This document shows, in pieces, positions 13,631 through 17,790 of a stretch of 42,748 bases of DNA. Every line of letters begins with the position of its first letter. Position 1 is the stretch's first letter. The DNA comes from Alphaproteobacteria bacterium (GTDB lineage: Bacteria > Pseudomonadota > Alphaproteobacteria > Rickettsiales > 21-14-0-20-44-7), in contig JABDBO010000002.1 in NCBI GenBank assembly GCA_013288575.1, forward strand, positions 8,037 to 50,784. Direction: 5' to 3'. Both the position numbers and the translations under genes were made by a program. The notes under the pieces were generated by a model, which worked only from the letters and a program-made list of their open reading frames with translations, made no database searches and had not been told where the DNA came from.

Positions 13631-15643
13631 ATGCTACGCAAAAATATCAATAAATGGGCTTTGACCACTGCGATAGTTGCTTTGCTATGTGGAAACATCA
13701 CTCCCGCATTAGCCGCTGATAACGGTTCAAATTCAGGCGATGACCTTGATAAGCTCCTTGATATGCCAATCAAAGATCTAACAAATATGGAAGTTACTTC
13801 CGTTTCCAAACGTGCGGAAAAAGCTTCCGAAGCAGCCGCTGCAATTTATGTGATTACCCAGGAAGATATTCGCCGCTCCGGTTTTAACAGCCTGCCGGAA
13901 GTTTTACGCATGGTGCCAGGTGTGCAAGTTTCACGCATCAATTCCGGTTGGTGGGCAATTACTGCTCGCGGTAATGCGCAGCCATTTGGCAATAAGCTTT
14001 TGGTTTTAATCGATGGCCGTTCAATTTATAACCCGCTTTTCTCCGGAGTTCTCTGGGAAGAACAAAGCACTCCGCTTGAAGATATCGAACGCATCGAAGT
14101 AATTCGCGGCCCAGGCTCAACTCTTTATGGTGCCAACGCAGTAAACGGCGTTATCAACATCATCACTAAAAATTCAAAAGATACGCAAGGTAACCTCGCA
14201 TCTGTAGGCGGTGGTAATTATGACAAATTCAGCGGTTTATACCGTTACGGAGGCCGCATAAGCGATACTGACACTTATCGCACTTATATAAACAATTACG
14301 AACAGGGTGATTCAAAAACCGAAAGCAGCCATAGCACTTTCGATGCTTATGATATGACTCGCGGCGGTTTCCGTTATGACGGCGGCGATAAAATGGGCAA
14401 TGCTAATTATACAGTATCGAGTGATGTTTATAAGGGCGATCGCGAACTACCATTCACCATGCTTCCGGCAACTAATGCGCAAGGCTCTATCGATGGCACG
14501 CAAGTGCATGATATGTTCGGCGGCAACGTTATTGGCAAATATGATAAAAAACTTGATAACGGTTCCGATGTGCAATTGCAGGCTTACTATGATTTCACAG
14601 GCCGTGATGCTAATACTTTCGGCTATAAAATCAGCACTGTAGATCTTGACGCACAGCACAACATAAACCTTTCTGAAAACCACCAATTCATGTGGGGTTT
14701 GGGTTATCGTGGCGTACTTGCCAGCCTTGATAGCGCGGTTGATGCCAGCTATGACAGGGATAATATGCAAACCAATCTCTTCAGTGGTTTTGCACAAGAT
14801 AAAATCCAGATCGTTCCTGATGAGCTTTATTTAACTCTCGGTTCAAAAATCGAGCATAACAGTTTTTCTGGCGTTGAGTTTGAGCCAAACGCACGCGTAA
14901 CCTGGCTTCCAACTCAAACTCAAACCGTGTGGGGTGCTGTAACTCGCGCCGTCCGCACGCCTAGCATTGCCGAAAGAACCATCACTCAGGCCATTGTCGG
15001 CTCGGCATTTGGTGTGGCTTCATATCAGGGCAATGATGATGTTACATCTGAAAAACTCATAGCTTATGAACTTGGTTACAGAAACCAGCTGACTAAAACT
15101 TTTTCAGTGGATGTGACGACATTCATCAATGATTATGATAGCCTCCGCACATTTGCGGCAACTTCTAATCCATTTATTTTAGATATCCAAAATAACGCTC
15201 AAGGTATCACTCGCGGTTTTGAAGTTTCATCGAATTGGCAAGTGTTTAGAGATTGGAGCTTGACTGGCAGTTACAGCTATCTTGATCCGCATTTGAAAAA
15301 TGATGAACCTGCTACAAATAGCTTGGATGCTGATAAGGACACTTCACCGCATAATATGTTCAACATCCGCTCGCATTATGACATTAGCAGTGAATGGGAA
15401 TTCAATAACTCGGTCTATTATATGTCAAAAATTGCCAGCGCGGCAATTACTGATACCCATGGCGTTGATGGCTATGCCAGCCTTGATGCCAACGTTATTT
15501 ATAAGCCCGCTAAAGGTATTGAGTTAATGTTATCTGGCGAAAACCTTTTGCATGATATGCATCAGGAATTTGGTTCAGCGCCATATAGTATTCCGGCAGA
15601 AATTCCACGTTCAGTATTCGGTAAGGTTACATTCAGGTTCTAG
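13631..15643 (+). CDS. TonB-dependent outer-membrane receptor
   Basis: Signal peptide ..TPALA. Plug motifs [11 protein letters not shown] and [29 protein letters not shown]. Long beta-barrel region. C-terminal KVTFRF. Confidence 0.85.
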   Translation: [670 protein letters not shown]

Positions 15644-16252
15644 ATGTTAAATAACATGCGGCATAAAATCGGCAGATTATCTTTCGCCTTTCTGCTGGTA
15701 GTAAATACGGCTATAGCGGCCAATGCCCCAGCATCTGCAACAGCCAGTGCTGCCAGCGTTACTGATTATGATTCACAGGCCGTCATCATCTATAAATTTG
15801 CCTATTCTTACGTCGAATGGCCGCAGATAACGCTTAAAGATAATGTAAAATCAGTTCAGGTTTGCGTATTCGGCAATAGCCCAGCCTTCGTAAAATCGAT
15901 GGAAAATGTCAGCGCCAAAATTGCTGATAAACTCAAAATAAATATCAAAACAGATGCCGCGCTTGAAGAAATAGGCAGTTGCAACATAGCTTATGTTTCG
16001 CATGGCAGGAGTGATTCTAAGACCATAATCGCTGAAGCAAAAAAACATTCAGTTTTAACTGTTGCGCCAATTGATGGTTTTGCCAATGACGGCGGCATTA
16101 TAGAATTCAATTTTAGCGACTCCGGCGAAACCGGCGGCGTGCCAACAAGTACTGGTAACGTAACATTCAAAGTCAGCACAAAAGCAGCAACCGAGAGCAA
16201 CCTCAAAATAGCGACGGAAGCTCTTCAGTCGGCAAAAGAGGTGATCAAGTGA
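15644..16252 (+). CDS. YfiR family (DUF4154) periplasmic protein
   Basis: Signal peptide. YKFAYSYVEWP, VCVFG, CNIAYVS and VLTVAP..GFANDGGIIEF match DUF4154 hallmarks. The ATG directly follows the TBDR stop. Confidence 0.7.
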   Translation: MLNNMRHKIGRLSFAFLLVVNTAIAANAPASATASAASVTDYDSQAVIIYKFAYSYVEWPQITLKDNVKSVQVCVFGNSPAFVKSMENVSAKIADKLKINIKTDAALEEIGSCNIAYVSHGRSDSKTIIAEAKKHSVLTVAPIDGFANDGGIIEFNFSDSGETGGVPTSTGNVTFKVSTKAATESNLKIATEALQSAKEVIK

Positions 16253-17790
16253 TAATTTTGAAAAGAAAATCACTGAAAGGACGATTGTTGCTTATAATTC
16301 TCTCTATAAGCGCAATTTGCGTTATTCTCACAACTTTGGCGATAACTGGCTATGGAATTGTCAACATGCGCCAGAAGATGGCCTCTGACTTAGACCTCTC
16401 TACAAAAATTCGCGGCACCGGTTTGGCAGGTTATGTAGATTTCGCGCAAAGTGGCGATATTGAGAAAATCAACGCGATTCTTCCTGCCTCAAGTTCCAAA
16501 GATGAAATTATCGCCTGCGTTTACAAATCACCAAAAGATGGATTAACGCCTGATTATTTAATGGCGCATCACGAATCAGATAAAAAAGAAACTTGCCCAA
16601 CCCTGCAAGAAGTTGTTGCTCAGCAAGGTGCTAACCAACTTGGTAATACATTCTTTGATGATAACCACCTAAAATCATATAAGCCAATCCTTGCCCAGAA
16701 TGGCGATAGGGTAGGTTACATATATGTTGAGAATGACCTCCAACAGATCCACGAATTCTTCCGAATTCAATTATTGGTCGCATCATTAATCGCCATTGCG
16801 GTTATTACAATTTCATATTTCCTCGCGCAAATGCTCCAGCGTTCTATTTCGGAGCCAATCCAACGCCTTGTGAATACTACTCATAAAGTTTCTGCCGAAC
16901 GTGATTATTCAATTCGTGCCGAAAACTTCCTTTCTGGCGAAGATATTAAGCGCAATGAAATAAGTATTTTGATCGACGCCTTTAACAACATGTTAAATGA
17001 GGTTGAAGACCGCCGCCAACTCTTGCTTCGTAAAAACCAAGAACTCGTTCAATCAAAAGAATTGGCGGAAAGTGCCAACCGAGCCAAGTCGCAATTTCTC
17101 GCTAATATTTCGCACGAACTTCGCACGCCATTAAATGCCATTATCGGCTTTTCTGATATTATTCAGAAAGAGCTTCTTGGCCCAATTGAAAACACCAAAT
17201 ATGTTGAATATTCCAAAGATATCAATGAATCCGGCGAGCATCTGCTTCACATTATCAATGATATCTTGGATCTTTCCAAAGCAGAGGCCGGCAAATTAGA
17301 GCCGGTTTTACGCGAAATTAGCATTAAGAAAAGTGTTCAGGAATGCGTTGTGTTTATTGCCAAGCGCGCCGAAGAAAGCGGAATTGCCGTCCAAATTGAT
17401 GTTCCCGAAGAATTGCCAAATCTCGTGGTTGACCGCACCATGTTTAAACGCATCATGCTAAATCTCCTTTCCAACTCGGTGAAATTCACCAATCGTGGTG
17501 GTAAAATCCGCATTAGCGCGTCAGTTCGCCTCAATACCCGCAACGAAAACGTATTTAGCATTACGGTTGAAGATAGCGGTATCGGCATGAGCAAAAACGA
17601 TATTGATCTTGCATTCAAGAGCTTTGTCCAGCTTGATGGCGGCTTTAACCGCAAATATGAAGGCACGGGTCTTGGTCTACCACTTACCAAAAAACTGGTT
17701 GAATTGCATGGCGGCAGCATCGAAATGATGAGCGAAGTCGGCAAAGGAACTAAGGTAATGCTAAAATTCTATTGCCCGTCTTCTAAATAG
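16249..17790 (+). CDS. Membrane sensor histidine kinase (periplasmic sensor, HAMP-like linker, HisKA, HATPase_c); no receiver domain
   Basis: GTG start overlaps the upstream stop (GTGA). Two TM segments flank a periplasmic region of about 150 aa. H-box FLANISHELRTPLNAIIGFSD. G-boxes EDSGIGM and GTGLGLPLTKKLVELHGG. Confidence 0.85.
   Translation: MIILKRKSLKGRLLLIILSISAICVILTTLAITGYGIVNMRQKMASDLDLSTKIRGTGLAGYVDFAQSGDIEKINAILPASSSKDEIIACVYKSPKDGLTPDYLMAHHESDKKETCPTLQEVVAQQGANQLGNTFFDDNHLKSYKPILAQNGDRVGYIYVENDLQQIHEFFRIQLLVASLIAIAVITISYFLAQMLQRSISEPIQRLVNTTHKVSAERDYSIRAENFLSGEDIKRNEISILIDAFNNMLNEVEDRRQLLLRKNQELVQSKELAESANRAKSQFLANISHELRTPLNAIIGFSDIIQKELLGPIENTKYVEYSKDINESGEHLLHIINDILDLSKAEAGKLEPVLREISIKKSVQECVVFIAKRAEESGIAVQIDVPEELPNLVVDRTMFKRIMLNLLSNSVKFTNRGGKIRISASVRLNTRNENVFSITVEDSGIGMSKNDIDLAFKSFVQLDGGFNRKYEGTGLGLPLTKKLVELHGGSIEMMSEVGKGTKVMLKFYCPSSK

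Follow-up and report, generated by a model that had tools for sequence, protein, structure and literature searches.

The 42,748-nucleotide stretch of alphaproteobacterial DNA analyzed here (assembly GCA_013288575.1, contig JABDBO010000002.1, positions 8,037 to 50,784 of the forward strand; hereafter the window) encodes a TonB-dependent receptor (TBDR), a YfiR-like periplasmic protein, and a sensor histidine kinase in immediate succession. We find that this trio is a divergent member of a recognized family, one that is known from annotation and for which no published mechanism was found in the literature searched. Because dozens of independent lineages show this gene order, the trio is a conserved module rather than a chance adjacency. 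The three proteins have clear identities and a clear topology across the envelope, their genes are tightly coupled, and the trio as a whole is conserved. Regarding how this divergent copy of a widespread envelope module receives its input, we lean tentatively, and with somewhat less than even confidence, toward transport-coupled sensing. The features on which this account is built are as follows.

13631 to 15643, + strand: TBDR, 670 amino acids (Pfam Plug and TonB_dep_Rec; NF053590 best match)
13787 to 13810, + strand: putative TonB-box position, MEVTSVSK, receptor residues 53 to 60 (invariant alignment columns)
15644 to 16252, + strand: YfiR-like (DUF4154) periplasmic protein, 202 amino acids (Pfam DUF4154, NF053591, structure model)
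16249 to 17790, + strand: sensor histidine kinase, 513 amino acids (Pfam HisKA and HATPase_c, CHASE8-sensor profile, NF053592)
16369 to 16746, + strand: CHASE8-like periplasmic region of the kinase, residues ≈41 to 166 (profile score, alignment)

Architecture of the trio

The three open reading frames (ORFs) lie on the same strand and abut or overlap exactly as an initial annotation of this DNA had described. At the first junction, which reads TTC TAG/ATG, the receptor stop codon (15641–15643) is followed with zero gap by the YfiR-like ATG at 15644; at the second, GTGA, the GTG start of the kinase (16249–16251) overlaps the TGA stop of the YfiR-like gene (16250–16252). This GTG start is backed by a family profile that aligns from residue 1. 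Each of the three ORFs is intact and matches its NCBIfam family model over the full length. Promoter and terminator scans returned counts equal to those from shuffled sequence and are uninformative on transcript structure.

The receptor matches the Pfam Plug (82.7 bits) and TonB_dep_Rec barrel (103 bits) models and consists of a signal peptide, a short conserved N-terminal segment, a TonB box, a plug, and a 22-strand-type barrel that ends in ...VTFRF. The signal peptide, which is the single N-terminal hydrophobic segment by hydropathy, ends near residue 28, and ≈25 residues separate it from the TonB box. The receptor has no Pfam match to an STN domain, the FecA-type N-terminal signaling domain, and its Plug match starts at residue 65, in agreement with the earlier description of a receptor that lacks a FecA-type extension. 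We assign the putative TonB box, MEVTSVSK, from its position relative to the plug, a position that we take to be comparable with that of the BtuB TonB box, DTLVVTA. The family alignment shows no variation at residues T56, S57, V58, S59, and K60, and a conserved L..L...L.N segment precedes them. Across 82 aligned receptors, the N-terminal segment and the TonB box are nearly invariant between phyla; a motif specific to pairing with YfiR-like proteins was sought here, and the segment proved equally conserved in receptors with and without a YfiR-like neighbor. The family to which this receptor belongs is large; at an E-value limit of 1e-20 it numbers at least 8000 relatives, with ≈40% identity across phyla.

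The middle ORF had been read as a secreted DUF4154/YfiR-like protein, and both parts of that reading hold, as Pfam DUF4154 matches at 74.5 bits (1.2e-20; cut-off, 24.9) and the protein has one N-terminal hydrophobic segment by hydropathy, the signal peptide. A profile built from 69 DUF4154 proteins linked to receptors matches the YfiR crystal structures (E value of 6.5e-18), whereas single-sequence searches of the YfiR-like protein, and of a FeeM-like protein encoded upstream of the receptor, gave no match among solved structures, so that YfiR was reached via the family profile only. In an AlphaFold2 model of the YfiR-like protein (predicted local distance difference test score of 80.9, with a core above 90), the top fold matches are to YfiR, with a probability of 1.0 and a template modeling score of ≈0.7. 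The Cys71/Cys110 pair of YfiR, a pair of a redox-sensitive type, is kept as C74/C113 in the window protein. The equivalent of the conserved Phe162 of YfiR is F175 and, in our reading of the alignment, hydrophobic residues occupy the pocket positions. A clade-specific insertion of ≈12 residues (residues 157–170, SDSGETGGVPTSTG; window positions 16112–16153), modeled with low confidence, directly precedes the strand by which YfiR binds YfiB and probably YfiN.

In its fold, the YfiR-like protein corresponds to one half of a periplasmic binding protein, and the fold relatives of YfiR are ligand-binding proteins (PMC4655355). A close structural neighbor of our model is a "single-domain substrate-binding protein" of Rhodothermus marinus (PDB 5z6v, 6k1x, and 8wgl), whose authors draw no link to YfiR and whose gene lies near a chemotaxis-receptor-like gene (PMC10805632). 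DUF4154 proteins as a whole form ≈28,500 clusters at 50% identity. Some members in the representative library (P0130 to P0134 and others) are ≈340 to 380 residues long and carry two tandem YfiR-like domains, and one of 546 amino acids has three matched stretches.

The domain order given for the kinase in the initial annotation, from membrane segment through periplasmic domain, second membrane segment, and HAMP to HisKA and HATPase_c with no receiver domain, is recovered by Pfam and hydropathy together. HisKA scores 75 bits and HATPase_c 90 bits, and HAMP, at 23.3 bits, falls just below its cut-off of 25. Two membrane segments, at residues 8–40 and 167–197, flank a periplasmic stretch of ≈125 residues. 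The H box, ISHELRTPLN, contains H289, the HATPase_c match is full, and the catalytic motifs are present; the output of the window kinase is HisKA plus HATPase_c in Pfam, with no GGDEF domain.

CHASE8 had been named as one candidate for the periplasmic sensor, and a purpose-built profile favors it. We built this profile from 55 sensors that adjoin DUF4154 genes in other genomes, using their first 195 residues and excluding the window clade. Residues 1–195 of the window kinase score 71 bits against it, versus 11.7 bits for the best of 1000 shuffles, and the periplasmic portion, taken by itself, reaches 33.8 bits (E value of 1.6e-12). A similar profile scores E. coli DgcN/YfiN at 97 bits. The "AAVVF" motif of YfiN has been proposed as a contact for YfiR (Malone et al. 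2012, PMC3375315), and in our alignment the kinase sequence "GYVDF" falls opposite it, with the phenylalanine kept as F65 (16441–16443) in a nearly invariant column. When the first 260 residues of the kinase are searched against NCBIfam, NF053592 is the top match (102.6 bits; cut-off, 194; positions 1–222 of 223 covered), and the DgcN/YfiN model comes next at 58 bits. Because the profile score, the AAVVF alignment, and the NF053592 match agree, the periplasmic domain of the kinase is best read as a divergent YfiN-type CHASE8 domain.

A recognized family known from annotation

NCBIfam release 20 contains three consecutive models for the trio: NF053590, the TOL_0244 family TonB-dependent receptor; NF053591, the TOL_0243 family YfiR-like periplasmic protein; and NF053592, a sensor histidine kinase described as YfiR-like protein-associated. 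NF053590 is by a wide margin the best match of the window receptor (616.4 bits, where the cut-off of 645 is not reached), with coverage of positions 2–604 of 604. NF053591 scores 68.4 bits on the YfiR-like protein, short of its cut-off of 125, and the canonical YfiR model, NF053586, reaches only 26 bits. More typical trios pass; the locus L009 clears all three cut-offs (701 bits for NF053590 and 171.6 bits for NF053591), as does a trio on the Sphingobium plasmid pSRL1 (666 bits for NF053590).

YfiR-YfiN cores have been reported as widespread without YfiB, with kinase, Hpt, or methyl-accepting chemotaxis protein outputs (Malone et al. 2012, PMC3375315). TonB-dependent receptors have zero mentions in that paper. 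Our searches of the literature for DUF4154, CHASE8, YfiR with TonB, TOL_0243/0244, and N-acyl amino acid synthase with TonB found neither a description of the trio, nor an experiment on it, nor a link between YfiR cores and TBDRs, which agrees with the statement in the initial annotation that no characterized example was known. The sole paper found that names TOL_0244 reports a sevenfold rise of this protein in Thalassolituus on solid n-C28 alkane and proposes a role in alkane uptake (PMC6304351). We do not adopt that role, since the proposal comes from proteomics by itself and cells grown on solid alkane are also under biofilm conditions.

A reading of the arrangement as a rarity, or as a local case of the swapped parts of the initial annotation, does not survive these comparisons. 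The window proteins belong instead to a huge, phylum-spanning family that is curated as three linked NCBIfam models, and kinase outputs for YfiR-type systems were already known in 2012 (PMC3375315). What is new in the window copy is its character as a divergent lineage version, with an unlinked regulator, a downstream Sel1-repeat gene, and an upstream FeeM-like gene.

Conservation of the trio across genomes

A neighborhood survey of the kind that the initial annotation had proposed bears out the recurrence of the triplet. We scanned one genome per species with the receptor alignment and obtained 80 loci, 77 of which have downstream sequence and are usable; the adjacency rates that follow hold for this receptor family, on which the scan was anchored, rather than for DUF4154 proteins in general. 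The loci span Verrucomicrobiota, Acidobacteriota, Desulfobacterota, Nitrospirota, Nitrospinota, Planctomycetota, Bacteroidota, Omnitrophota, Armatimonadota, and Alpha-, Beta-, and Gammaproteobacteria, more than 10 phyla in all. A DUF4154 ORF lies immediately 3' of the receptor on the same strand in 66 of the 77 loci and elsewhere in the cluster, in another order, in four. The gene after DUF4154 (n = 61) encodes, by Pfam, HATPase_c in 57 cases, HisKA and HAMP in 56 each, and CHASE8 in 54, together with a receiver domain in 31, Hpt in 20, and GGDEF and EAL in five each. Junctions between the YfiR-like and sensor genes are tight, with the 4-nucleotide overlap found in 21/61 loci and a spacing within ±30 nucleotides in 55/61. 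Of 75 same-strand proteins encoded further downstream, 46 contain a receiver domain, combined with kinase domains in 11, GGDEF in 10, EAL in six, or HD-GYP in five. No importer or TonB-ExbBD genes recur beside the trio among the downstream proteins of the comparison loci.

Cultured carriers include Sphingobium indicum B90A, on pSRL1, and Pseudoalteromonas, on a chromid. Tractable examples are SIDU_RS18035 to SIDU_RS18045 of S. indicum B90A pSRL1, D172_RS17295 to D172_RS17285 of Pseudoalteromonas sp. Bsw20308, and TOL_0244 with its neighboring genes in Thalassolituus oleivorans. The Prokaryotic Genome Annotation Pipeline labels these cultured trios as a TonB-dependent receptor, a YfiR family protein, and an ATP-binding, kinase, or EAL protein. 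The receptor is an optional input, because YfiR-like/CHASE8 pairs exist without a TBDR; taken together with the receptors that lack a YfiR-like gene nearby (7 of the 77), these pairs make the link between receptor and YfiR-like protein strong but not obligatory.

Several loci depart from the simple order. Tandem receptor paralogs precede a single YfiR-like gene in L014 and L020 (two receptors each) and in L024 (three), and in L035 the order is receptor-YfiR-receptor-YfiR, followed by one sensor. In three loci from Pelagibacterales- and Rickettsiales-type metagenome-assembled genomes, a small Hpt protein of 118 to 153 amino acids follows the YfiR-like gene with no membrane sensor (L037:2647–3003, L053:9404–9766, and L074:2541–3002), and in L021 the third signaling gene is absent.

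How the receptor may feed the kinase

In the mechanism that we tentatively prefer, the parts would be an outer-membrane TOL_0244-type receptor, a periplasmic TOL_0243-type YfiR-like protein, and an inner-membrane CHASE8 kinase. By analogy with YfiR-YfiN, the YfiR-like protein would bind the CHASE8 domain of the kinase via its conserved hydrophobic C-terminal face and thereby hold one signaling state. The gene linkage points to the receptor as the supplier of the input. Energized by TonB, it would bring a ligand into the periplasm, where the ligand would act on the YfiR-like protein or on CHASE8, alter the contact between the YfiR-like protein and the kinase, and so change kinase activity. The output in the window lineage would be phosphotransfer to a regulator whose gene lies elsewhere, whereas most other lineages would route it through a hybrid sensor or through receiver proteins with GGDEF, EAL, HD-GYP, or further kinase domains, and because the sensors there are hybrid or followed by such proteins, the module appears mostly to feed cyclic di-GMP and multi-step phosphorelay networks. 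The neighborhoods are in keeping with a receptor that serves sensing and not nutrition, because receiver proteins recur beside the trio and importer or TonB-ExbBD genes do not; the absence of importer genes suggests that the ligand is sensed rather than eaten.

A number of observations weigh against this account. At the level of the proteins, all three fall below their NCBIfam cut-offs (616/645, 68/125, and 103/194), although each model is the best match; the Pfam CHASE8 model is not significant on the window kinase; and the Cys145-Cys152 disulfide, which is essential in P. aeruginosa YfiR, has no counterpart, the aligned positions being occupied by residues other than cysteine throughout the receptor-linked family. 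At the level of the genes, neither a response regulator nor a TonB system is seen in the window, seven of the 77 receptors have no YfiR-like gene near them, and YfiR-like/CHASE8 pairs occur without a receptor. The tandem receptors that precede one YfiR-like gene would, moreover, fit a docking site at least as well as they fit import.

That docking site is the core of the reading advanced in the initial annotation, which we regard as possible but rather unlikely. Here, the receptor would replace YfiB; on ligand binding, its exposed TonB box and the segment preceding it would capture the YfiR-like protein off CHASE8, with no need for the ligand to be imported. In YfiBNR, a single face of YfiR engages YfiN or, alternatively, the partner in the outer membrane, and the contact with YfiB is made by adding a β-strand to a sheet (PMC4655355). 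The position of the receptor gene, first in the operon and abutting the YfiR-like gene, would suit such a partner, as would the several tandem receptors per YfiR-like gene and the two receptor/YfiR-like pairs that share one sensor in L035. A TonB box is likewise captured by strand addition. The near-invariance of the N-terminal segment and TonB box across phyla also speaks for this reading; however, the motif is equally conserved in members without a YfiR-like neighbor and is thus not specific to the pairing. A mirror-tree comparison of 35 trios gives a suggestive, weak signal in the same direction. The receptor, YfiR-like, and CHASE8 distances correlate with one another at 0.54 to 0.58, versus 0.31 to 0.44 with the kinase core, and the partial correlations of 0.43 to 0.52 are reached by none of 500 permutations, but co-inheritance and shuffling of the kinase core could produce this signal. 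Neither the mirror-tree test nor the N-terminal conservation separates import from sequestration. Against sequestration, the receptor keeps a full plug and a TonB box, as would a working transporter.

Alternatively, the receptor could be co-expressed or autoregulated cargo, with the YfiR-like protein and the CHASE8 kinase sensing some other envelope cue, such as redox state or envelope stress, in the manner of YfiR; we consider this improbable. Nutrient receptors under the control of two-component systems would be the parallel. YfiR-like/CHASE8 pairs do work without a receptor in other genomes (PMC3375315), the redox-sensitive cysteine pair of YfiR is among the features kept in the window protein, and the sevenfold rise of TOL_0244 on n-C28 alkane marks the receptor as a regulated product (PMC6304351). 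The linkage is nonetheless tighter than would be expected of a mere regulon member, with the YfiR-like gene next to the receptor in 66 of 77 loci from more than 10 phyla, the order kept, and the junctions overlapping, and the curators at NCBI named the three families after each other on the strength of that linkage. With importer genes absent beside the receptor, moreover, a role in nutrient uptake is hard to see.

A chance adjacency or a decaying remnant, to which the three sub-cut-off NCBIfam scores, the absence of a receiver domain from 42.7 kb, and the loss of the kinase in reduced related lineages (L021 has none, and L037, L053, and L074 have only the small Hpt protein) might point, is very hard to reconcile with intact ORFs that match the family models over their full length, with a kinase that has its ISHELRTPLN H box and full HATPase_c match, and with a six-gene arrangement kept in relatives whose YfiR-like proteins are 49% and whose receptors are 55 to 60% identical to those of the window.

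Comparison with known signaling systems

The closest counterpart of the window trio is the NCBIfam trio itself, with the same proteins in the same order and full-length coverage. The window copy differs in that its kinase is non-hybrid and has no adjoining regulator and in that its lineage adds the Sel1-repeat and FeeM-like genes. The NCBIfam families are named after locus tags, and a functional study of them was not found in the literature searched.

Among characterized systems, YfiBNR (TpbB) of P. aeruginosa and E. coli and HmsCDE of Yersinia likewise place a periplasmic DUF4154 protein beside an inner-membrane CHASE8-HAMP sensor, with an outer-membrane protein as the third partner, and the putative contact residues are kept in the window (F65 of the kinase, F175 of the YfiR-like protein, and the hydrophobic pocket). 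The window system departs from YfiBNR in its output, which is HisKA/HATPase rather than GGDEF, and in its outer-membrane partner, which is a 22-strand TBDR rather than the OmpA-like lipoprotein YfiB. No OmpA-like, YfiB-type gene adjoins the trio, and none turned up when other window ORFs were scanned with Pfam. The gene order also differs, being receptor-YfiR-sensor instead of yfiR-yfiN-yfiB, and the window family does without the Cys145-Cys152 disulfide. The cores described by Malone et al. 2012 (PMC3375315) are of just the kind found in the window, in that a YfiR homolog accompanies a histidine kinase with a YfiN-type sensor, and YfiB is usually missing; the linkage to a receptor is what sets the present trio apart. 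The receptor may fill the outer-membrane role that is left vacant in many of these YfiB-less YfiR-YfiN systems.

The FecA-FecR-FecI and FpvA-FpvR-PvdS systems differ from the window in that its receptor has no STN domain, its scanned ORFs include no anti-sigma factor or extracytoplasmic function (ECF) sigma factor, and its output is a phosphorelay. With the extension and the sigma/anti-sigma pair missing, any signaling by this route would be distinct from classical cell-surface signaling, as the initial annotation proposed. Like a classical two-component system, the window has a kinase with an H box and an ATPase domain, but unlike one, it has no adjoining response regulator.

The PfeA-PfeS/PfeR and PirA-PirS/PirR systems combine a receptor with two-component sensing of the imported ligand, and LuxP-LuxQ and TorT-TorS are kinases controlled by binding proteins. 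These share the logic of the import model, in which the receptor would admit a ligand to the periplasm and a periplasmic partner would set the state of a membrane kinase. They differ in their sensor and partner families and in that their ligand doubles as a nutrient or their partner is a complete binding protein with two lobes. In Sinorhizobium, ExoR is a periplasmic Sel1-repeat repressor of a kinase (ExoS/ChvI). The window resembles that arrangement in encoding a secreted Sel1-repeat protein beside an alphaproteobacterial sensor kinase, but the window protein is not ExoR (27 bits versus a cut-off of 450).

The window lineage and its neighboring genes

Two further features adjoin the trio.

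12785 to 13555, + strand: FeeM-like N-acyltransferase of the GNAT type (Pfam FeeM, 41 bits; cut-off, 27)
17866 to 18525, + strand: secreted Sel1-repeat protein (Pfam Sel1, four matches; likely start ATG at 17866)

PurA places the window in an uncultured alphaproteobacterial lineage, with matches of 70 to 88% in other assemblies and of 63 to 66% in the nearest named Alphaproteobacteria. Four related loci (L001, L085, L086, and L087) encode receptors that are 55 to 60% identical, and YfiR-like proteins that are 49% identical, to those of the window. They share the order ispB, FeeM-like GNAT, receptor, YfiR-like gene, kinase, and Sel1-repeat gene, followed on the opposite strand by an epimerase gene and purA.

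The claim that the kinase is an orphan holds in part. A receiver-domain profile with 152 matches in the comparison loci has no match in the 42.7-kb window, and a non-hybrid kinase without a nearby receiver gene is shared by the window, L001, L085 to L087, and the Rickettsiales-type loci L027, L028, and L050, in the last three of which a MarR-type gene follows the kinase. Elsewhere, however, most sensors are hybrid kinases or have receiver proteins encoded after them, so that the unlinked kinase is a trait of this alphaproteobacterial lineage only.

The Sel1-repeat protein that had been noted at 17866 is confirmed there by its four Pfam matches. Its gene directly follows the kinase only in the window clade (L001 and L085 to L087), its signal peptide is evident by hydropathy, and its match to the ExoR model is faint. 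It is conceivable that it serves as an accessory, second periplasmic partner.

The FeeM-like gene ends 75 nucleotides upstream of the window receptor. A FeeM-like gene also lies directly upstream of the receptor in the rest of the window clade and in the Rickettsiales-type loci L023, L053, and L069, in these three with gaps of 2 to 111 nucleotides, and stands near the receptor in other orientations in L011 and L021. In L023 and L069 it sits beside the receptor even though a YfiR-like gene is lacking. One may speculate that the lipid-like product of this enzyme is a ligand of the receptor, although shared ancestry of the loci could explain the linkage; were the receptor itself the transducer, the signal in this lineage might even be an N-acyl amino acid that the cell makes with the upstream FeeM-like enzyme.

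Pfam scans of further window ORFs return housekeeping genes. As stated in the initial annotation, TonB/ExbBD, ECF sigma and anti-sigma, ABC importer, and siderophore genes are absent, none being found in Pfam scans of 28 window ORFs, a set that left out AsmA, an amino acid permease, LolA, and a few short ORFs. A glutamate-synthase-like protein (35341–41022, − strand) is unusually long at 1893 amino acids and gives moderate scores for all four GltB domains; the ORF that follows it (33135–35333, − strand) encodes 732 amino acids with no Pfam match. Tandem DUF2336 paralogs of 378 and 381 amino acids lie at 28673–29809 and 29870–31015, both on the − strand. Two ORFs without a Pfam family flank the region of the module, one of 299 amino acids (10683–11582, + strand) and one of 372 (19548–20666, + strand); the latter is missing from the syntenic relatives L001 and L087.

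Implications for TonB-dependent signaling

To our knowledge, TonB-dependent receptors have been known to signal inward only via a FecA-type extension, an anti-sigma factor, and an ECF sigma factor. The module described here links a receptor without that extension to a two-component or cyclic di-GMP network through a YfiR-like protein. The window copy is one of thousands, a divergent and lineage-specific version whose individual value is moderate. The module as a whole is very common, from Acidobacteriota to Rickettsiales-like bacteria, and experiments on it were not found in the literature searched. It is also possible, if doubtful, that the receptor is itself the transducer; by analogy with YfiR-YfiN-YfiB, ligand would expose the TonB-box region, the YfiR-like protein would be captured, and the CHASE8 kinase would be released. 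If so, the module would constitute a second, phosphorelay-based class of TonB-dependent cell-surface signaling in more than 10 phyla, and the receptor would be the outer-membrane partner that many YfiB-less YfiR-YfiN systems appear to lack. The mechanism would answer the question, raised in 2012, of what replaces YfiB in most YfiR-YfiN systems, and it would show how many bacteria tie the cell surface to decisions about biofilm formation and motility.

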